A stretch of DNA of 64,000 bases. It comes from Parcubacteria group bacterium. Lineage in GTDB: Bacteria > Patescibacteriota > Minisyncoccia > Phycocordibacterales > 21-14-all-47-15. Shown one piece after another: positions 7,309-20,144 of the stretch. The number at the start of each line of letters is the position of its first letter. The first letter of the stretch is position 1. The position numbers and the translations under genes are program-made. The stretch spans positions 2,845-66,844 of the forward strand of contig JACOYO010000005.1 in assembly GCA_016181845.1 (NCBI GenBank), in the 5' to 3' direction. The notes under the pieces are model-generated. The model did not search any database, was not told the DNA's origin, and saw only the letters and a program-made list of their open reading frames with translations.

Positions 7309-8484
7309 ATGAAGAATTACATATCCTATTTTTCATTTTTCTGTTTTGTATTTTTCGGTCTTTTTTCAATTTCTGTCGCGTTTGCCAATAGTTATCAAAA
7401 AATCGCTCCCGGCGACACAGTCACCTTGGGCGAATTCGTTTTTGATGACGATTTTGTCGCGACTACGACAAATTGCACTGTTGGAATAACCAATCCTCTT
7501 AATGCTGAGATAGTTGCATCAACCACATTGATGAACGCTAATACTGATGGCTGGCATTACTATAACTATACGACGGCGGCGGACGCCCCTTCCGGTATCT
7601 GGCCATCAATTATGATTTGCGGAACGGTAGCAAGGGGAGATTTGGTTATAGTAGACAAAAGTTTTATCGTTGATTGGTCAGTCGTTTCAACCAGCACAAT
7701 TAAAGAGGTGGTTGATGAAAGTTTGACCATAGCGACATCTTCCCTGGCGACAGTTATTAATACTCATACCGATACTAAGGCATCCGATATTGTGAGCGCT
7801 GTCAATCTCGTCACCGAGTCAGCTTCATCAAGTTTGTTTGCCACGCTTCCTTCCGCGATCTGGTCATTTAGCAGTCGGACACTCACTTCGTTTGGTACTC
7901 TAGTTGCCGACACGGCTTCGGCGGTGTGGACATCGGTGACATCGGTGACCCGCACCCTGACCGGCGCCGGTCTTGATTCTGGTTCTTTGGCTACCCTCTC
8001 TGATGTACAAACAGCAACGAGTTCTCTCGCTTCAGCAATCACGGCTGGAACGGTGGCGGTGAATACTAATACGAACGCAGAACTTCTTGCCGCCTCAACA
8101 TCCCTTGCCAATTTCATTAATAACAACAGCAACGCGACGATTCTTGCGGCTTCTACGTCACTGGCTTCATATCTAAGCGCTCACACGGATGCGGCGTCAT
8201 CATCAATCGCCTCATTTGTGAACGCTAATACCAACAGCACGGTATTGGCGGCATCAACATCGCTTGCGGCATTCATTAATGCAAATACGAATACACAAAC
8301 CGCCGCGGTAACGTCAGCAGTGAATGCAAACACCGATGCGCGGATCGCAACAGCATCAAGTTCGCTTGCGGCCACGCTTCCTTCCGCGATCTGGTCATTT
8401 AGCAGTCGGACACTCACTTCGTTTGGTACTCTAGTTGCCGACACGGCTTCGGCGGTGTGGACATCGGTGTGTGGACATCGGTGA
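7309..8484 (+). CDS. N-terminal part (signal peptide plus AASTSLAxFINANTN repeats) of a surface protein gene interrupted by a 14-bp tandem duplication; a frameshifted pseudogene or a phase-variable gene
   Basis: Signal peptide MKNYISYFSFFCFVFFGLFSISVAFA. The ORF ends AVWTSVCGHR* exactly where tgtggacatcggtg is duplicated (8456-8469 and 8470-8483). Removing one copy fuses it in frame to 8457..9968. Confidence 0.55.
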   Translation: MKNYISYFSFFCFVFFGLFSISVAFANSYQKIAPGDTVTLGEFVFDDDFVATTTNCTVGITNPLNAEIVASTTLMNANTDGWHYYNYTTAADAPSGIWPSIMICGTVARGDLVIVDKSFIVDWSVVSTSTIKEVVDESLTIATSSLATVINTHTDTKASDIVSAVNLVTESASSSLFATLPSAIWSFSSRTLTSFGTLVADTASAVWTSVTSVTRTLTGAGLDSGSLATLSDVQTATSSLASAITAGTVAVNTNTNAELLAASTSLANFINNNSNATILAASTSLASYLSAHTDAASSSIASFVNANTNSTVLAASTSLAAFINANTNTQTAAVTSAVNANTDARIATASSSLAATLPSAIWSFSSRTLTSFGTLVADTASAVWTSVCGHR

Positions 8485-9968
8485 CCCGCACCCTGACCGG
8501 CGCCGGTCTTGATTCTGGTTCTTTGGCTACACAATCTTATATTGACACTGCCACTTCAACTCTTTCTGCCAAAATCCAAAGCGGCTCTACGGTAACACTA
8601 TCTGATTTTGGGGCGACCACACCTAACACCGCGTACAAAGCAAAATTGCAGGTCCTAAACCAAGCGACCGTTCCAACGGATGCTGATTCTCTGCCAACGG
8701 TGGTTATTACTGATTCCGCCGGAACGGTCCAAGTCAATGGTAGCGTGATGACAAAGGACTCAAACGGCACCTACAGCTTTAGTTATAGTCTTGGCGGCAA
8801 CCCTGTCGGCGGTGTTTGGGAGACAGTAGTTTCCGTCGTCATTAATGGGCAAACGGTTAGAGTAAATGACTATTGGGAAGTTGCGTCAGCTCCGGCACAA
8901 GTGATTGTAAATTCTATTACCGATCATACTATTCCGAGCATCACCGCGAATGTGACCATAACTAATGAAGGAAGTTCCGCTTTTGAGTACCACTATGAAT
9001 GGTGCGTAGTAAAAGAACAAAATAATCCTTGCGGAGATGGTGATGATATTGATTACGCTTCAGCCGCCAAATTTATTCAGCCGGGTGAGGACTTTATCAC
9101 TGATTTGTCTCTTACTCTTAATCAAGAAGGAATTTTCTACTTCAAAGTGGCGGTTACGTGGGGGACGAAAAAATCATTTGCTTCCAGTCAGTTTGACGCG
9201 AGAGGATTTACCGTCTCTGGCGATACATTTGTCCGATTGGAAACGAATGAAGCAACATCTTCACCGTTTGTAACCGATGAAGGAAGTACCATAACGCAAG
9301 GTATTCCTGACGGGGCAACAAATGAAGCATCAAATTTCCACATTTCCAGATTGTCAAAAACGGATGTACTTGCGTCATTTGCCGCCCCGTCAGGAAAAAC
9401 GGCTCTTGGAAGTTACATCTTCGGGTTAAGAGCCAGCACGGTGGCAAGTGGCACGACGATTACCTTATTCAACAAACCGATTACTGTCACGTTTGAATAT
9501 GACGAGAGTTTGCTCGGCGGTTTAGATGAAAGCGCTTTACAAATTTATCATAATCTTGAAAACGGTAGTGGCTGGATTGCTTTGGATAATCAAAGTATTA
9601 ATACCACCAGCAACATCATAACTGGACAAACAATGAGATTTAGTTTGTTTGGTGTTTTTGGATCCGAGGTGGCTCAATCACCATCACCATCTCCATCACC
9701 TGCGCCTTCTAGCGGTGGCGGTGGTGGGGGCGGTGGAGGTGGAAGCGGTGCGGCCGCACCTTCCCAGCCGGCGGCTGTAATTACTTCAAAAGCCGAAAAC
9801 AGCGCGGACTTCAACGGGGACAATAAAGTGAATTCCGTTGACTTCTCAATCTTGCTATTCTTCTGGAAGACATCGCCGCCATTTGCAAATCCGGGAGTTG
9901 ACATAAACAAGGATGGAAAAGTAGATTCCGTTGACTTCTCAATCTTGCTCTATCACTGGAACAAATAA
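8457..9968 (+). CDS. C-terminal part of the same surface protein, ending in a Pro/Ser/Gly linker and a canonical type-I dockerin pair
   Basis: The C-terminus reads ..SPSPSPSPAPSSGGGGGGGGGGSG..DFNGDNKVNSVDFSILLFFW...DINKDGKVDSVDFSILLYHWNK. That is two 12-residue Ca-binding loops (D-x-N-x-D-x-K-V-N/D-S-x-D), each followed by an (F/L)SILL helix, which is the dockerin signature. Confidence 0.6.
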   Translation: MDIGVWTSVTRTLTGAGLDSGSLATQSYIDTATSTLSAKIQSGSTVTLSDFGATTPNTAYKAKLQVLNQATVPTDADSLPTVVITDSAGTVQVNGSVMTKDSNGTYSFSYSLGGNPVGGVWETVVSVVINGQTVRVNDYWEVASAPAQVIVNSITDHTIPSITANVTITNEGSSAFEYHYEWCVVKEQNNPCGDGDDIDYASAAKFIQPGEDFITDLSLTLNQEGIFYFKVAVTWGTKKSFASSQFDARGFTVSGDTFVRLETNEATSSPFVTDEGSTITQGIPDGATNEASNFHISRLSKTDVLASFAAPSGKTALGSYIFGLRASTVASGTTITLFNKPITVTFEYDESLLGGLDESALQIYHNLENGSGWIALDNQSINTTSNIITGQTMRFSLFGVFGSEVAQSPSPSPSPAPSSGGGGGGGGGGSGAAAPSQPAAVITSKAENSADFNGDNKVNSVDFSILLFFWKTSPPFANPGVDINKDGKVDSVDFSILLYHWNK

Positions 9969-9970
9969 AT

Positions 9971-10900
9971 ATGCATACATTCTCTAACAAAAAAATACAC
10001 ATCTTCATTCTGTTGTTTAGCGCAATGTTTTTGCCGTTTTCGGTTTCCGCCTCAACCGCGTATATAGACACCGGTCATACAGATTTTTTCGTTGGGGATA
10101 CTATATTGTTTAGTGTTCGTGTTGACTCTGAAAATAAAGATATAAATGCGGTTGATGGGGAGGTTTTGTTGGATCATGCGGCAAGGTCGGTTTCTTTAAT
10201 TGATATCAATACGGCGAGTTCCGAATTTTCTCTTTGGCCATTAAAACCTTTGCCATCGGAGAGAAATATGAGCATTTCTTTTGTCGGCGGGTCTCCCGGT
10301 GGTTTTAACTCCAAAGACGCGGTTATTTTCAACATTGTCTTGAAATTGGAAAAAGAAGGCCCAATAACTCTGACACCTAGTGATTTTTCTGTGTATCTAC
10401 ATGACGGCAAAGGCACCAAAGATGATGTACATGCTAAACAATTAGCCATAAATGTCTTGCCTAAAAAACCAGATTCGCAGCCAGTTGATGATTGGAATAA
10501 TGTAATTTCAAATGATAAGACCCCGCCCGAGTTTATTGAAGCAATCATAGATAGAGACCCGTATATTTTTGATAACCAATATTTTGTGAGTTTCTTTGCT
10601 GTTGATAAGGATGCTGGGGTCGCTTATTATGAAATTAAAGAGAACGATCTTGATTTCGTTCACGCCGAGAGTCCTCACCTTCTCCAAGACCAATCACTTA
10701 AAAGCGTTGTCCAAATAAAAGCGGTTGATAAAGCAGGAAATGAAATCTTTGTGACTCCAAAATTGGCCCCGGTACCGATAACAGGAATTCCTTACAAAAC
10801 ATATCTGGTCTGGGTTCTTGTTATCCTGGTAATTCTAGCGTTTATTTTCTGGCTTTTGCGGTTCTGGACGACTACATTAAAAAAGAATGTTCAAAAATAA
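9971..10900 (+). CDS. Membrane-anchored protein with an N-terminal cohesin-like beta-sandwich domain; signal peptide and C-terminal TM helix
   Basis: Signal peptide MHTFSNKKIHIFILLFSAMFLPFSVSA. Residues ~28-165 follow a cohesin-like pattern of alternating hydrophobics (ILFSVRV..INAVDGEVLLD..SISFVGG..G.FN...AVIFNIVLKL..G). C-terminal TM YLVWVLVILVILAFIFWLL. It sits directly downstream of the dockerin gene. Confidence 0.5.
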   Translation: MHTFSNKKIHIFILLFSAMFLPFSVSASTAYIDTGHTDFFVGDTILFSVRVDSENKDINAVDGEVLLDHAARSVSLIDINTASSEFSLWPLKPLPSERNMSISFVGGSPGGFNSKDAVIFNIVLKLEKEGPITLTPSDFSVYLHDGKGTKDDVHAKQLAINVLPKKPDSQPVDDWNNVISNDKTPPEFIEAIIDRDPYIFDNQYFVSFFAVDKDAGVAYYEIKENDLDFVHAESPHLLQDQSLKSVVQIKAVDKAGNEIFVTPKLAPVPITGIPYKTYLVWVLVILVILAFIFWLLRFWTTTLKKNVQK

Positions 10901-14950: not shown

Positions 14951-15892
14951 TCAACCTTGCGCGAATCGGCTGATTATCGGCTCTATATCTCCGGCAAAAA
15001 TACGCTCGATGCCGTGCCACGACTCTTTGATACGATGGTCGGTTACGCGGTCTTGCAATATGTTGTATGTGCGAATCTTTTCAGAGCGGTCTCCGGTGCC
15101 AATCTGACTTTTACGCTCTGCCGCGTGTTCTTTGTCGGCTTTTTCGCGCTCCATTTCTTCCAATTTTGCCGCAATAATTGAAAGCGCTCTTTCGCGGTTT
15201 TTCTGCTGGCTTCTCTCACTCGTGCATCGCACGACAAGCCCCGACGGCTTGTGCAATAGACGCACCGCCGTTTCCACCTTGTTCACATTCTGCCCGCCAG
15301 CACCGCCCGATCGCGAAAAGGTAATTTCCAAATCAGCCGGACTTATTTCTACGTGCGATGTCTTGCGTACCGGCAAGACCGCCACCGATGCTGTGGATGT
15401 GTGCACGCGTCCGGATTTTTCCGTTGCGGGAATTCTCTGGATGCGGTGTACGCCGGTTTCATATCGTAATTTTTTGTACACTTCTTGACCTTTGATTTCA
15501 AAAGATGCTTCTTTGTATCCGTCCATCGCCGAGAGAGATTCATCAAGTCTATGAAACGACCAGCCATTTTTTTCCGCATATTTTTCATACATCTCCGAGA
15601 GATTGCGCGCGAAAATCGCCGCCTCTTCTCCGCCGGCGCCAGCTCGTACTTCAAGGATGATTTCATTTGGGAATTCCTCTTCTTCTTTATCCTTTGCCAA
15701 AATTTCATCCATCTGCTTAATGAGGGCGTCTTGCTGTTCTTCAATTTCTTTCAATTCTTCTTGCGCCAATTCTTTAAGCATTTCATCCGCTTCGGCGGTT
15801 TGGAGAGCGTCTGCTTTGGCACGTTCAAGCCGCTCGTGTTCCTGCGCGAGAAATTGCGTTTTTGGATTTTCTTTGTAGATGTTGATGTCCAT
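14951..15892 (-). CDS. prfA: Peptide chain release factor 1
   Basis: A GGQ motif ([19 protein letters not shown]) and the RF1-type PAT tripeptide ([14 protein letters not shown]). Confidence 0.9.
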
Positions 15893-15949
15893 GTTGTTTA
15901 TTGTAGCGTGCCTTTGTATGGCTTGACAAGTATATTTAATGATGCATTA

Positions 15950-15977
15950 AAAAATCCGCGGAAGCGGCGGATTTTTT
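15950..15977 (-). terminator. Rho-independent terminator downstream of rpmE
   Basis: aaaaatccgcggaagcggcggatttttt is a GC stem with flanking A/T runs. Confidence 0.5.
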
Positions 15978-15999
15978 ATGCTTAACCAACAGCGTGGGA

Positions 16000-16218
16000 C
16001 TATTTCTTTTTTGGAGCTGCTTTCGCGCGGCGGGTTTTGAATTTTTCCACGCGGCCGGCTGTATCCACCACCTTTTCTTGCCCAGTAAAAAACGGGTGGC
16101 ACGCACTGCAAATTTCCACGTGTATTTCAGGCATGGTAGAGCCAACTTCAAAAATATTGCCGCAGGCGCAAGTCACTTTCGCTTTTTGGTGATATTCCGG
16201 ATGAACATCTTTTTTCAT
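16000..16218 (-). CDS. rpmE: 50S ribosomal protein L31 (zinc-binding type)
   Basis: [39 protein letters not shown] is the L31 signature with CxC..CxxC. The start Met is at 16216-16218; the longer ORF-track N-terminus is REP-derived. Confidence 0.85.
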
Positions 16219-16290
16219 AAGTATAACCATAACATATCTAATTTCTTTTGCAATATGTTGAAAATCTGCAATGTAATATGTGTGACAAAT

Positions 16291-16315
16291 ATGTTGGACA
16301 TCGGATGTCCAACAT
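16291..16315. repeat. REP1-family palindrome (aTGTTGGACATCgGATGTCCAACAt), copy a
   Basis: A 19-bp perfect palindrome TTGGACATC-G-GATGTCCAA. There are 5 copies in the window: 16291, 16341, 16557, 17110 and 19264. Confidence 0.8.
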
Positions 16316-16340
16316 ACAACATGAACTAATTTCTTTAGTA

Positions 16341-16369
16341 ATATGTTGGACATCCGATGTCCAACATAT
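16341..16369. repeat. REP1-family palindrome, copy b, with the centre base flipped (catcCgatg); it forms an inverted doublet with copy a
   Basis: atatgttggacatccgatgtccaacatat, 25 bp after copy a and just upstream of the transposase start. Confidence 0.8.
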
Positions 16370-16387
16370 ATAATATTATTTATTATT

Positions 16388-17098
16388 ATGCATAACGAAT
16401 TTTTTCATTTACTTAATCGCGGCGTAGACAAAAGAAACATTTTTCTAGACGAAAGGGATTATTTTAGATTCATACATAACTTATTTGAATTCAACGATAT
16501 TAATAATGTCAATCCAAATAGCAGTAATCGTGTATTTAAATCTAAATCTCACAATTCCCAATGGTTGGACATCGGATGTCCAACCATTGGGAAAACTGAA
16601 AGAAGACCGCGTAAATTGTTGGTAAATATTCACTTCTTTTGTCTAATGCCCAATCATTACCATCTTCTTGTCTCCCCTCTCGTGGAAAATGGCATCTCAT
16701 ATTTTATGAAAAAATTAAATATGGGATACTCAAAATATTTTAACGAAAAATATGATAGGTCCGGAGCTTTGTTCCAGGGAAAGTACAAATCCGTTCACAT
16801 TGAACGGGACGCTCATTTTTTATGGATTCCTTATTATATTCACTTTAATCCTTTGGAATTAAAATTTCCCTCGTGGAAACATGAAAAAGTCTCCGATTAT
16901 AAACAAGCTATGAAATATTTAGAATCTTATAGATGGAGCAGTCATTTGGATTATCTAGGAAAGAAAAATTTTCCTTCGGTAACACAACGAGATTTTTTTC
17001 TTGAATCTTTTGGCGGAGAAAAGAAGTATCAAAATTCTGTTTCAGAATCTCTCTCTGAAATAAATATATCCGATATGGAAAATATAACTCTTGAGTAA
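16388..17098 (+). CDS. IS200/IS605-family HuH (Y1) transposase, RAYT-like, with an in-frame REP1 copy inside the CDS
   Basis: HuH motif [12 protein letters not shown], with the conserved downstream block [24 protein letters not shown]. The start is the ATG at 16388 ([12 protein letters not shown]); the ORF-track N-terminus is REP-encoded. A REP1 palindrome lies in frame at 16557-16591. Confidence 0.65.
16557..16591. repeat. REP1-family palindrome, copy c, embedded in frame in the transposase CDS (it encodes [13 protein letters not shown])
   Basis: cccaatggttggacatcggatgtccaaccattggg is a 35-bp extended palindrome. Confidence 0.8.
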
Positions 17099-17109
17099 TT
17101 TGAGTAATT

Positions 17110-17130
17110 GTTGGACATCGGATGTCCAAC
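17110..17130. repeat. REP1-family palindrome, copy d, 12 bp after the transposase stop
   Basis: gttggacatcggatgtccaac. Confidence 0.8.
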
Positions 17131-17138
17131 GGGTTGTC

Positions 17139-18491
17139 TTAATCGCCTTGCAAGATGTCAATCATATTTTGATATTTTTCCGCAAGCGCCATCACGTCGT
17201 CCCCATAAAACGCATACGATGGTTTCTGCCAATTACCTCCAGCCAAATACCGAAGCGCCGCGCGGCGCTCGGCGGTATACCCGCCAGCGCTAGCGCCGTT
17301 ATCCCGAAGCAAGAGCGCCGCCGCCATGAAAGCGTCTCCGGCATCCCACGGATTTGGCGGATTGTGTCCTGTCCGCGAAGCGATGGACGATTTATAGAGC
17401 TGCCATGTCGTCGGCATGAACTGCGCCGGTCCCATCGCCCCGCCGCATCCGTAGTATGGCGCCTTTGAAACTGGCATCGTATCGGGATTGAGGCCAAGCT
17501 CGCCGGTAATTGCAAGAAATGCAGATTTTTGATTTTCAGCCGATGTTGGATATCCTATGCTTATATAACATTGATACAAATCTTTTTTCCAATTACCAGT
17601 GCCGACATTTGCGCCGAGCTCCGATTCTTCGGCTATCGTCCCTAAAATAAATGCCGAGCGGACCCCAGTTGCCTTAGACGCCTTATCGGCAAATTGCAGA
17701 GCTTTTTCAAAAGGGATAGCCGCACTGCCACGAAGTGCAAACAACTCGCTTCTGATGACGGCTGCCGATTTTTCTTTTTGTTTGATAATCTGCTGATACG
17801 CATCTTCTTGCCCTTTGGTTATCTTGAGAATCTGTTTTTTATCGGCCTCACTTTGTTCTATGCGGCGTTGTTGCAACACCTGAATCCCGCGCAATTCTTC
17901 TTCTTCCGCCCGTTTTGATTCAAGCGCGTGCTTCTGCTCTTCGGTAAGATTTTTTGTATTTTCTATTTCATCAAGCGACTCACTCAACGCACGCCCAAGA
18001 AAATCGAGCGAATCAATGTCCGAAAACAAATCTGAAATATTTTCTTGCGCGAGAACAACTTCCACGATGGAGTACTGATCAACTTCGTTTGTCTTGCGCA
18101 CGAGCTGGGCAAGCGAGCGCCGTTCGCCGTCCATTTTTTCAATCAATGTACCTATCACTTTCTGTTTGTCTGCGATGTCGGTGCGTAATTTTTGAATTGC
18201 GATATCGCGGACACGAATGCTCAACTTGGCCTTCTCTATTTGAGCGTTCAAAATCGCGACATCCCGCTCAAGCGACACACGCTCACGCTGTTTGCTTTGA
18301 AGAACCGTCTGCTGTCCCGCGATTTCCTTCTCAAGATTGGCGAGGTCGTCCTCAAGCTGCGCGCGGCGGGCGTCAATGGTCGTGGCTATATCGGCGGCAA
18401 AAATATTCCCAACATTAAAAAAACCAAAAGACGCGGTTTGCCCAAAAACAAACACAAATATGCCTAGATAAAAAGACAATTTCTTCAACAT
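17139..18491 (-). CDS. Secreted or membrane-anchored coiled-coil protein with a C-terminal lytic-transglycosylase (SLT)-like domain
   Basis: N-terminal TM/signal, then ~250 aa of coiled coil. The C-terminus has GTIAEESELG...YYGCGGAMGPAQFMPTTW, with a catalytic Glu and a GLMQ-like block. Confidence 0.5.
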   Translation of the reverse strand: MLKKLSFYLGIFVFVFGQTASFGFFNVGNIFAADIATTIDARRAQLEDDLANLEKEIAGQQTVLQSKQRERVSLERDVAILNAQIEKAKLSIRVRDIAIQKLRTDIADKQKVIGTLIEKMDGERRSLAQLVRKTNEVDQYSIVEVVLAQENISDLFSDIDSLDFLGRALSESLDEIENTKNLTEEQKHALESKRAEEEELRGIQVLQQRRIEQSEADKKQILKITKGQEDAYQQIIKQKEKSAAVIRSELFALRGSAAIPFEKALQFADKASKATGVRSAFILGTIAEESELGANVGTGNWKKDLYQCYISIGYPTSAENQKSAFLAITGELGLNPDTMPVSKAPYYGCGGAMGPAQFMPTTWQLYKSSIASRTGHNPPNPWDAGDAFMAAALLLRDNGASAGGYTAERRAALRYLAGGNWQKPSYAFYGDDVMALAEKYQNMIDILQGD

Positions 18492-18520
18492 AAAAGATAT
18501 AAGTAGTATAGCATATTATA

Positions 18521-18556
18521 AAAAACCGCCTCGTCTGAAACAGGGCGGTTTTTTTA
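18521..18556 (-). terminator. Rho-independent terminator downstream of rplY
   Basis: aaaaaaccgcctcgtctgaaacagggcggttttttt is a perfect GC stem plus a T-run. Confidence 0.55.
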
Positions 18557-18560
18557 ATTA

Positions 18561-19217
18561 TTAAGCCTTGGTTTCGCTTGGCGCGGCCTCGCTTCCTTCT
18601 TCTTCTTTCTTGCCTTTCTTTTCCACTTCAATCGCAGAAAGGTCTATCGGCGCGGGCGCTTCTTCTTTTTCTTCAACTTTTTGAGTTATCATCGCGACTA
18701 CTTCTTCCGGATTATCCGTCGCCACTGCGCTTTCAGGAAGCGCGATATCTTTGATGGAAATCTGGCTGTCAAAATCTTTCAGCGTTGAAATATCAACTTT
18801 GATTTCATGCGGCAAATGTTTCGGCAACACTTCTATTTCCATTTCATACATCACTTTTACGAGCGTCCCGCCCAAATCTTTGACCGCAGGAGAAACACCT
18901 TCAAAAACAATCGGCACAGTAACCGTCACTTTCTTTTTCGCGTCAATCACATAAAAATCAGCGTGGATAGGCTCTCCGCGGACAGGGTCAAGCGTCACTT
19001 CATGAATCAAGATATCAAGCTTTCCTTCCGTGGTTTCAAGCGCAATCACCGATGATTCACCGGCTTCGTGCCATATTTTTTGAAAATCTTTCGTTGATAC
19101 AGAAACGGGCTTTGACGTGGTTTTTGAACCATAAAAAACCGCTGGCATTCTGCCTTCTTTTCGGAGCTTCGCGAGCCCTTTTTTCGCATCTCTTTTTTCT
19201 GTCGCTAATGTAAACAT
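18561..19217 (-). CDS. rplY: 50S ribosomal protein L25 / general stress protein Ctc
   Basis: N-terminus ..EKRDAKKGLAKLRKEGRMPAVFYG, beta-barrel blocks DFYVIDAKKKVTVTVPIVFEG, and an acidic C-terminal tail. Confidence 0.8.
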   Translation of the reverse strand: MFTLATEKRDAKKGLAKLRKEGRMPAVFYGSKTTSKPVSVSTKDFQKIWHEAGESSVIALETTEGKLDILIHEVTLDPVRGEPIHADFYVIDAKKKVTVTVPIVFEGVSPAVKDLGGTLVKVMYEMEIEVLPKHLPHEIKVDISTLKDFDSQISIKDIALPESAVATDNPEEVVAMITQKVEEKEEAPAPIDLSAIEVEKKGKKEEEGSEAAPSETKA

Positions 19218-19263
19218 ACACTACTGTATACACGAAAAACTCTTTCGTGTCAAAAAAATTAAT

Positions 19264-19287
19264 ATGTTGGACATCGGATGTCCAACA
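19264..19287. repeat. REP1-family palindrome, copy e; a solo copy between rplY and fba
   Basis: atgttggacatcggatgtccaaca. Confidence 0.8.
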
Positions 19288-19292
19288 ATTCA

Positions 19293-20144
19293 TTATGACT
19301 TGCTAAAAAGTCTCAAGCGCTTTTCGGCGGCTGTTCGCACCGCCTCTCGGGCATCATTCAAAATGTGATAAGGAGCAACGTCATCGGGATACCGCGACAA
19401 GTGATTTGCTACGGCGTCTTTCCACGCGACACGAATTTCGGTATTGATATGAATAATAGAGATTCCCGCTTTTATCGCGGCAAGAAAATCATCATCGGAA
19501 ATGCCGGAACCGCCATGAAGCACAAGCGGCACATTAGCGCTTTTTTTTATGTCGCCAATGCGCGCTATATCAAGACGCGGATTGGAAACGTTTTTCAGCA
19601 TGCCGTGAATATTGCCAACTGCCGGCGCAAGCATATCAACACCAGTTTCTTTAGCGAAATCTGCCGCTTCTTTGGGCTCCGTCAATTCCACCCCTTCGGG
19701 TATTGCATCTAATAATTTTGAAGAAACGCCGATAAAGCCAAGCTCTCCTTCCACCAGTACGTCGCGGCCAGAAGTGCCTGCGTATAAGACACATTGCTTG
19801 GTTATCGCAATACGTTCGTCTGCTGGCAATTTCGTGCCGTCAAAAATCACGGCATCCACTCCAGCGTCAATCGCATCTTTCACCTTTTCAAATGAATACG
19901 TGTGGTCGGCATTCACATACATCGGCACGCCAATCTCTTCCGAAATGCTTTTAACCGCTACCACCGCCTGCCTGATGCCGAAAAATTCGCGCTCTCCTTC
20001 CGAAAGTCCGATAATAACCGGTACGCCGACATTTTTTGCGGCAAGCGCAATCCCCCACAGCGCATCAATCGTTGAGATATTAAAATGCCCGATGGCAACA
20101 CCGCTCTTTACCGCGTCTGTTATTGTTTCTCGGAGTGTTTTCAT
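19293..20144 (-). CDS. fba: Fructose-bisphosphate aldolase, class II
   Basis: GVAIGHFNISTIDALWGIALAAKNVGVPVIIGLSEGE ... LVLHGGSGISDDDFLAAIKAGISIIHINTE are class II FBA/tagatose-bisphosphate aldolase blocks. Confidence 0.85.
   Translation of the reverse strand: MKTLRETITDAVKSGVAIGHFNISTIDALWGIALAAKNVGVPVIIGLSEGEREFFGIRQAVVAVKSISEEIGVPMYVNADHTYSFEKVKDAIDAGVDAVIFDGTKLPADERIAITKQCVLYAGTSGRDVLVEGELGFIGVSSKLLDAIPEGVELTEPKEAADFAKETGVDMLAPAVGNIHGMLKNVSNPRLDIARIGDIKKSANVPLVLHGGSGISDDDFLAAIKAGISIIHINTEIRVAWKDAVANHLSRYPDDVAPYHILNDAREAVRTAAEKRLRLFSKS

Follow-up and report, generated by a model that had tools for sequence, protein, structure and literature searches.

A 64,000-nucleotide stretch of contig JACOYO010000005.1 from a Parcubacteria group bacterium (hereafter the window, meaning the whole stretch that was analysed) contains a gene for a Y1 HUH enzyme that is surrounded by copies of a short palindromic repeat and carries one further copy within its own coding sequence (CDS). 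REPtrons, in which a tnpA_REP/RAYT gene is flanked by its cognate repetitive extragenic palindromes (REPs), have reportedly been described by Nunvar in 2010, by Bertels and Rainey in 2011 and by Ton-Hoang in 2012; the window locus is read here, with a probability of roughly 65%, as a REPtron-like unit in which a Patescibacteria class-2 Y1 HUH enzyme is bracketed by its cognate hairpin repeat, and in which the in-CDS copy is still a cognate site. On single-stranded DNA, the repeat, a palindrome of 21-31 bp, would form a hairpin. If the enzyme acts as E. coli TnpA_REP and IS608 TnpA do, it would bind this single-stranded hairpin and cut and rejoin nearby, and such cutting and rejoining could both spread copies of the repeat and keep them alike. 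The in-CDS copy would then be an old in-frame member of the repeat family, amounting to 13 codons here, that is still recognised or processed by the system and is not a dead relic. The features concerned are as follows:

16388..17098, plus strand: gene for a class-2 Y1 HUH enzyme (TnpA_REP/RAYT-like), 236 aa
16290..16316: distal upstream palindrome, 13-nt arms, centre G at 16303, 85 nt before the ATG
16341..16369: proximal upstream palindrome, 14-nt arms, centre C at 16355, inverted, 33 nt before the ATG
16555..16593, plus strand: perfect 39-bp palindrome within the CDS, 19-nt arms, 13 codons
17110..17130: downstream palindrome, 10-nt arms, centre G at 17120, core starting 12 nt after the stop codon
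19265..19287: solo intergenic copy, 11-nt arms, centre G at 19276, 2.18 kb from the Y1 stop codon
16347..16374, plus strand: promoter-like site, TGGACA-16 nt-TATAAT, 11/12 matches, a consensus match only

The evidence that carries this reading comes from the comparison of related loci. A scan of GTDB species genomes yielded 289 relatives, from which 80 loci were retained, each with flanks of up to 10 kb on both sides; the median protein identity of this family is 58%. Most of the 80 loci contain the same triad, with one palindrome 18-85 nt before the start codon, one within the CDS, and one 5-60 nt after the stop codon. The in-CDS palindrome is placed between +150 and +186, and its centre falls on codon position 1 in every case; the first-pass annotation of the window had named absence of this copy from orthologous genes as grounds for refuting its reading, and instead the copy is found at the same codon in ca. 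88% of the orthologous loci. The usual repeat unit is approximately 31 bp long and has the form (C)AAT-N4-core-N4-ATT(G), around a 15-nt core that varies among genomes (GGACATCsGATGTCC, GGACGTCsGACGTCC, CGACATC.., CGACGTC.., GGAAGTCsGACTTCC and AGACGTC.., with TGACACCgGGTGTCA, GGACTTGcGAAGTCC and the asymmetric CGACATCGCAAGTCG as further types; GGACGTCSGACGTCC is an example of a core that is non-cognate to the window enzyme). Within one locus, the same core recurs at all three sites, its imperfections included (e.g., CGACATCGCAAGACG). The in-CDS 15-mer agrees with its own upstream and downstream copies at 13.7 and 13.3 of 15 positions, compared to 10.4 and 10.2 for the copies of other loci, and none of 10,000 permutations produced a within-locus match as high as the one observed. 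Whereas 66 of 75 loci showed a match of at least 13/15, only 3 of 750 control 15-mers from other parts of the same CDS did so. Among the 59 loci with three copies, 23 have identical copies throughout, the CDS copy departs from the other two in 12 loci, and the upstream and downstream copies do so in 7 loci each; thus, the in-CDS copy is kept about as well as its flanking counterparts. Since it tracks the flanking copies through changes of the core and is equally well kept, the in-CDS copy is better understood as a cognate site than as a relic. Seven genomes encode two or three Y1 paralogues at 60-77% identity, each with a different core; diverged paralogues with cores of their own follow the pattern of RAYT genes and not that of insertion sequences.

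The agreement of the three copies could also arise if the in-CDS copy were a vertically inherited master from which the flanking and dispersed palindromes are made, coupling the enzyme to its substrate. The asymmetric cores (e.g., ..ATCGCAA..) occur in a single orientation in the CDS in ca. 23 loci and in both orientations in the flanks, as vertical inheritance of the CDS copy would predict, and core imperfections are common to all three copies; however, in the 12 of 59 loci with a deviating CDS copy, the flanking copies agree with each other and are the better palindromes, an example being the clade of L010, L011, L013, L014 and L020. Moreover, the window copies outside the CDS share arms that are unlike those of the CDS copy, and the CDS copy is missing from some clades that possess the flanking ones. 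A master copy is therefore considered improbable.

In the window itself, the repeat TTGGACATC[G/C]GATGTCCAA occurs five times, where 0.01 copies would be expected by chance. All five copies listed in the first-pass annotation were recovered, although their description as perfect 19-bp palindromes does not strictly hold: the 19-mer consists of 9+1+9 nucleotides, and because its centre base is not self-complementary there are two orientations, and each copy is oriented. The centre-G form TTGGACATCGGATGTCCAA is located at 16294-16312, 16565-16583, 17111-17129 and 19267-19285; the centre-C form TTGGACATCCGATGTCCAA is located at 16346-16364 and is inverted relative to the other four copies, so that the distal and proximal upstream copies constitute the inverted doublet noted previously, an arrangement resembling a REPIN. 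Four of the five copies bracket the Y1 gene (at -85, -33 and +22) or sit within it, and one is solo, between rplY (18561-19217, minus strand) and an aldolase gene, ca. 50 nt upstream of rplY; the placements given initially for the downstream copy, just past the stop codon, and for the solo copy, near rplY, are both correct. The 64 kb contain no further copies, not even when the search is relaxed to a 15-mer with two mismatches. All five copies are set in longer perfect palindromes, with the arm lengths listed above. Their common core in the window is GGACATC-S-GATGTCC; the arms of the four copies outside the CDS read ATGTTGGAC.., compared to ATGGTTGGAC.. for the CDS copy. The latter was rightly placed in frame by the first-pass annotation; its extent of 16555-16593 is slightly wider than the 16557-16591 proposed then. 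Folding as single-stranded DNA was predicted at -8.4 to -20.7 kcal/mol for the five copies, and none of the shuffled sequences folded as well.

The in-CDS hairpin appears to be conserved as a structure. In an ungapped alignment of 69 in-CDS sites, both sides change in 13 of the 14 stem pairs tested; 80.5% of the stem cells are paired, compared to 60.1% in shuffles, almost all of them by Watson-Crick pairing, and double changes occupy 186 cells, compared to 65.5 in shuffles. The covariation score of 0.454 was not reached by any of 500 shuffles (0.123), and controls with slid partners attained at most 0.127. The window palindrome spans residues 57-69 of the protein, with the centre G at 16574 as the first base of the Gly63 codon. 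Between loci, the encoded peptide changes (DIGCP, DVGRP, DVRRP, DIECP, EVGLP, DTGCQ, DLRSP, and others) and the pairing is preserved, which argues that the constraint acts on the nucleic acid and not on the amino acids. The near-invariance of D61 and P65 in the protein alignment would suit a different explanation, in which DIGCP is a protein motif under amino-acid selection, or the site is a double-stranded operator for a dimeric regulator, with palindromy as a secondary feature; yet the peptide otherwise varies widely, each change keeping the base pairing, its residues fall in a segment that is modelled with little confidence (see below), and the arms beyond the core differ between copies and are nevertheless complementary up to 25 nt, as expected of a hairpin and not of a fixed operator. 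There is accordingly next to no likelihood left for a protein motif or an operator.

The position of the copy within the protein may explain why it can be accommodated. In an AlphaFold2 model of the Y1 protein with a mean predicted local distance difference test score (pLDDT) of 82.8, residues 43-69 form the only long low-confidence segment (pLDDT below 50), i.e., a predicted disordered loop between the helix at 22-34 (alphaA) and the strand at 79-86 (beta2), ahead of the HUH strand. Among relatives without an in-CDS copy, this loop segment is gapped in L064, L073 and L078, and the loop is shorter in L114 and L147, with the flanking copies kept. As judged from the model, the in-CDS copy is tolerated because it resides in a disordered, flexible surface loop before the HUH motif, and it is not essential.

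Folded as RNA, the in-CDS copy is predicted to form an 18-bp stem at -31.4 kcal/mol (z = -6.8), a stability that no shuffled sequence equalled. G-U pairs, however, account for only ca. 2% of the stem cells, with no excess among the non-standard ones; their rarity, together with the occurrence of flanking copies in either orientation, favours a DNA hairpin that is usable on either strand over an RNA element, and RNA-level structure was rejected on these grounds as the main selected feature. The same observations bear on the proposal, which goes back to the first-pass annotation, that the in-CDS hairpin is a selected cis-regulatory device, by which the enzyme binds its own gene or mRNA, or the stem slows transcription or translation, keeping enzyme levels low. 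The stability of the RNA stem would suit such a device, as would a site that is fixed at one codon across a family of this divergence and is kept like its flanks; in the window, the proximal upstream copy also overlaps a strong promoter-like site, the -35 hexamer of which falls in the left arm of the palindrome, and protein binding there could regulate transcription in principle. Against this stand the almost purely Watson-Crick stem, which points to DNA, and the lack of conservation of the promoter overlap, since a -10-like hexamer at 16-18 nt spacing was found in just 9 of 55 loci; the in-CDS copy is absent from some loci that have flanking copies, and the repeat also turns up in housekeeping genes that have no relation to the enzyme, as well as in a second Y1 subfamily, where its positions and phases differ. 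Because the repeat is found in unrelated open reading frames (ORFs), its residence in a CDS needs no regulatory explanation. An autoregulatory role is possible, but the wider sequence comparisons do not support it, and a selected regulatory device is on balance rather unlikely.

The start codon of the Y1 gene is most likely the ATG at 16388, and its stop codon occupies 17096-17098. Its product carries the HUH motif as H90-Y91-H92 (within NHYH, 89-92), the tyrosine motif YYIHFNP at 149-155, and a serine pair at 184-185; the motifs NHYH, LFQGKY, YYIHFNP (Y-x3-NP) and WSSH are invariant across 28 homologues. The protein database contains 6,324 homologues of 221-259 aa, and nearly all of those with a name bear the label Parcubacteria or Patescibacteria; the length of 236 aa, which was initially regarded as an oddity, is therefore typical of the family. 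Comparison with hidden Markov models (HMMs) placed residues 79-152 above the cutoff for the Pfam domain Y1_Tnp (36.4 bits, cutoff 23) and gave a score below the cutoff of the NCBIfam model for REP-associated enzymes. A sequence search of PDB returned nothing at E <= 1; a Foldseek search with the AlphaFold2 model returned as its top PDB match 4er8_A, the E. coli TnpA_REP in complex with a REP hairpin, followed by the TnpA proteins of IS608 and ISDra2. The gene is assigned to a large clade of class-2 TnpA_REP/RAYT-like enzymes in Patescibacteria, and not to IS200. Motifs and length suggest class 2 and, within it, a position closest to subclass 2.1, going by the published criteria (Quentin et al., 2018; PMC6006769, Table 1); the IS200 subclass 1.1, with Y-x3-Q and ca. 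150 aa, does not fit.

The bracketing of the gene near its ends by similar hairpins would also be expected of an ordinary IS200/IS605 insertion sequence, with the flanking palindromes as the hairpins of its left and right ends and the in-CDS copy as an incidental feature. The absence of the whole unit from the syntenic site in two relatives agrees with such an element as well. The tyrosine motif, however, is Y-x3-NP, as in class 2, and not the Y-x3-Q of IS200 (PMC6006769); the protein is 236 aa long with a C-terminal extension, compared to ca. 150 aa in IS200-type transposases; paralogues within one genome are 60-77% identical and not near-identical; the palindromes lie mostly far from Y1 genes, many of them within housekeeping ORFs; and there is no tnpB gene near the Y1 gene. 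An ordinary insertion sequence is very improbable, and the preference for a REP/RAYT arrangement over IS200 that was expressed at the outset is upheld by the class-2 motifs, the structural match to TnpA_REP, the diverged paralogues and the dispersed palindromes.

Movement or loss of the unit is indicated by empty syntenic sites. In the loci L006 and L039, the block of rplY, a gene with an SLT domain, rpmE and prfA is present without the Y1 unit between the SLT-domain gene and rpmE; the spacer between these two genes measures 30 nt and ca. 86 nt, respectively (L006, 440-560; L039, ca. 15118-15204), compared to 920 nt in the window. The Y1 genes of L006 and L039 are located 4-9 kb away from the empty site. 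These sites imply that the Y1 unit has moved or has been lost over evolutionary time; the exact ends of the insertion are not defined by them, since the DNA of L006 and L039 is too diverged. As a separate observation, L001 contains at 10697-10860 a perfect 123-nt duplication of the 3' end of the Y1 gene and the palindrome, directly past the stop codon; after the second palindrome, seven extra nucleotides resemble the flank of the in-CDS copy. This duplication may be a trace of rearrangement at the hairpins; it is suggestive only and does not prove recombination.

Away from the gene, the repeat is dispersed. An exact-match scan of metagenome contigs found it on at least 120 contigs, with 140 occurrences among the matches listed, to which the following counts refer. 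In 113 of the 140 cases, no Y1 homologue was present in the available stretch or within 1 kb; where at least 2 kb were available on both sides, 34 of 39 occurrences had no Y1 gene within 2 kb. ORFs of at least 150 codons contain 60% of the sites, compared to 81% of random positions. The sites within ORFs use all three phases and are translated as LDIGCP/LDIRCP, LGHPMSK/LGHRMSK, or TWTSDVQ; read from its sequence, the 19-mer is free of stop codons in all six frames. In-frame copies occur in intact genes for ArgRS, GatB, LeuRS, LigA and RecG, where full-length NCBIfam matches run through the repeat. In the second Y1 subfamily (L129, L178, L100 and L199; 33-40% identical to the window protein), the 19-mer is read in another phase and lies just behind the tyrosine motif; L199 has two in-CDS copies, one of which is in the same alphaA-beta2 loop as in the window protein. 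The copies in the second subfamily and in housekeeping genes indicate that in-frame residence is a general property of the repeat and not special to the Y1 gene.

Several further occurrences were recorded. The in-frame copies in ArgRS, GatB, LeuRS, LigA and RecG, and others in an rRNA methyltransferase, were recorded on the metagenome contigs L102, L143, L104, L194, L109, L161, L115, L195, L200 and L166, sometimes as two adjacent copies. Homologous housekeeping proteins on different contigs carry the repeat at the same site with the centre base flipped. In two of the GTDB genomes, cognate palindromes lie in long ORFs downstream of the Y1 gene: three in a single 807-codon ORF at a distance of 1.9-2.0 kb in L018, and one in a 1,261-codon ORF at ca. 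6.3 kb in L050.

A number of observations weigh against a REPtron-like unit with a still cognate in-CDS site. In ca. 10% of the loci, the flanking copies are kept and the in-CDS copy is lost, so that the latter is dispensable; the relative orientation of the flanking copies is not consistent, as both orientations occur; and the matching of the three copies fits homogenisation by copying and selection for binding alike. Concerning the enzyme, the NCBIfam model NF047646 (REP_Tyr_transpos) gave 36 bits, below its cutoff of 80, and the protein does not score as an equivalog; the structural homologues are only ca. 12% identical in structural alignment. Canonical REPs consist of an imperfect hairpin with a 5' GT[AG]G (or CGTC) foot, whereas the window repeats are near-perfect palindromes without a foot; many family copies have a CAAT...ATTG base in place of the GTAG/CGTC foot. 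The solo copies in the metagenomes may come from genomes that do not encode the enzyme, and the genome loci contain ca. 21 solo copies in 937 kb, or approximately one per 45 kb, with one solo copy in the 64 kb of the window; such sparse solo copies suggest copy numbers far below those of classical REP families.

Other features of the locus are of local interest. The downstream palindrome was listed by the terminator scan, but it is doubtful as an intrinsic terminator, its tail, GTTGTCTTAA, being only a weak T-run. An Rfam search of 15800-19600 found no real family, and only sub-threshold matches to generic microRNA hairpins. A 23-nt direct repeat, CTAATTTCTTT[T/A]G[C/T]AATATGTTG, occurs at 16238-16260 and 16327-16350 (21/23 identical, 89 nt apart); its second copy abuts the proximal upstream palindrome, and the first continues into unrelated sequence. 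Local duplication may account for it, or it may show the left flank in a form that lacks the palindrome. Elsewhere in the window, an imperfect palindrome with 19-nt arms (ACCCGCACCCTGACCGGCG / CGCCGGTCTTGATTCTGGT) is present in identical form at 7948-7983 and 8484-8519, at a distance of 536 nt; it bears no relation to the REP-like repeat.

The REPtron-like unit in the window shares with REPtrons, exemplified by E. coli TnpA_REP (PDB 4ER8), the Y1 HUH fold and a single catalytic tyrosine in a Y-x3-NP motif, the bracketing and dispersed hairpins, a repeat type that is specific to each paralogue, and a low gene copy number with diverged paralogues. It differs from them, beyond the missing foot, in copy numbers of the repeat that look low (tens, not hundreds), in a 236-aa protein below the NCBIfam RayT cutoff, and in its Patescibacteria host. 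Rickettsia palindromic elements (RPEs), reportedly described by Ogata and coworkers in 2000, and intragenic REPs resemble the present repeat in that palindromes reside in frame in genes of housekeeping function (for tRNA synthetases, DNA ligase and repair) and encode short peptides in tolerant regions; compared to RPEs, the elements here are much shorter (a core of 15-19 nt, with ca. 7-13 codons added), and they belong to a different sequence family in Patescibacteria. HUH replication initiators with the nick site in their own gene, phiX174 gene A and pT181 repC, likewise have the cognate site of the enzyme embedded in its own reading frame; those sites are rolling-circle origins, and nothing at the window locus indicates a replicon or an origin.

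The first-pass annotation had considered a palindrome within the transposase reading frame to be undescribed. This was not borne out: in-frame REPs inside tnpA_REP genes have been reported as unique to subclass 2.4 (Quentin, Siguier, Chandler, Fichant 2018; PMC6006769), and Di Nocera et al. (2013; PMC3733652) described REPs inside host genes, including those for DNA ligase and tRNA synthetases. In subclass 2.4, as here, a cognate REP lies in its own CDS with the frame intact and in a peripheral region of the protein (PMC6006769). The window protein, however, does not match the subclass 2.4 motif NH[IFV]H/WQ/YIxNNP; its in-CDS copy precedes the HUH motif (aa 57-69, compared to 90-92), keeps a fixed codon and phase across the clade, and co-varies with the flanking copies. 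Subclass 2.1 is characterized by the motifs NH[YF]H, FQ, Y[IV]HLNP and SS, a median length of ca. 238 aa, and no REP-like sequences nearby (PMC6006769); the related category of TIRYT genes has GGGGWSAS-type terminal inverted repeats at the flanks (Di Nocera 2013; PMC3733652). As read from the alignment, the motifs and length of the window protein fit subclass 2.1/TIRYT, but cognate hairpins flank the window gene, and GGGGWSAS repeats are lacking. Searches of the literature for the encoded peptides, and for candidate phyla radiation (CPR) bacteria in combination with in-frame palindromic repeats, returned nothing relevant; no description of the Patescibacteria clade, of hairpins around a subclass-2.1-like enzyme, of an orthologous in-CDS site throughout a clade, or of its co-variation with the flanks was found in the literature searched. 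What is new here is the clade, the fixed in-CDS site and the three-way matching; the general arrangement was already known.

RAYT/REP systems are a leading model both for transposases that have been domesticated and for non-autonomous replicators that persist over long periods, and how enzyme and repeat stay matched is one of the questions they pose. The clade described here offers dozens of independent hairpin changes, each of them repeated at three sites, including one within the enzyme gene itself; it constitutes a natural data set for the recognition code between enzyme and hairpin, and for the question of whether the enzyme homogenises the copies. More speculatively, the in-CDS hairpin could be a built-in cis element of a self-coupled system, either as an inherited master copy or as an autoregulatory binding site, that would lock the specificity of the enzyme to its repeat family as the repeat colonises essential genes in frame; this wider proposal is unlikely as a whole. 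The tiny, densely coding genomes of Patescibacteria tolerate the repeat in essential proteins, and in-frame repeats of this kind affect gene annotation, protein alignments and phylogenies in this group.

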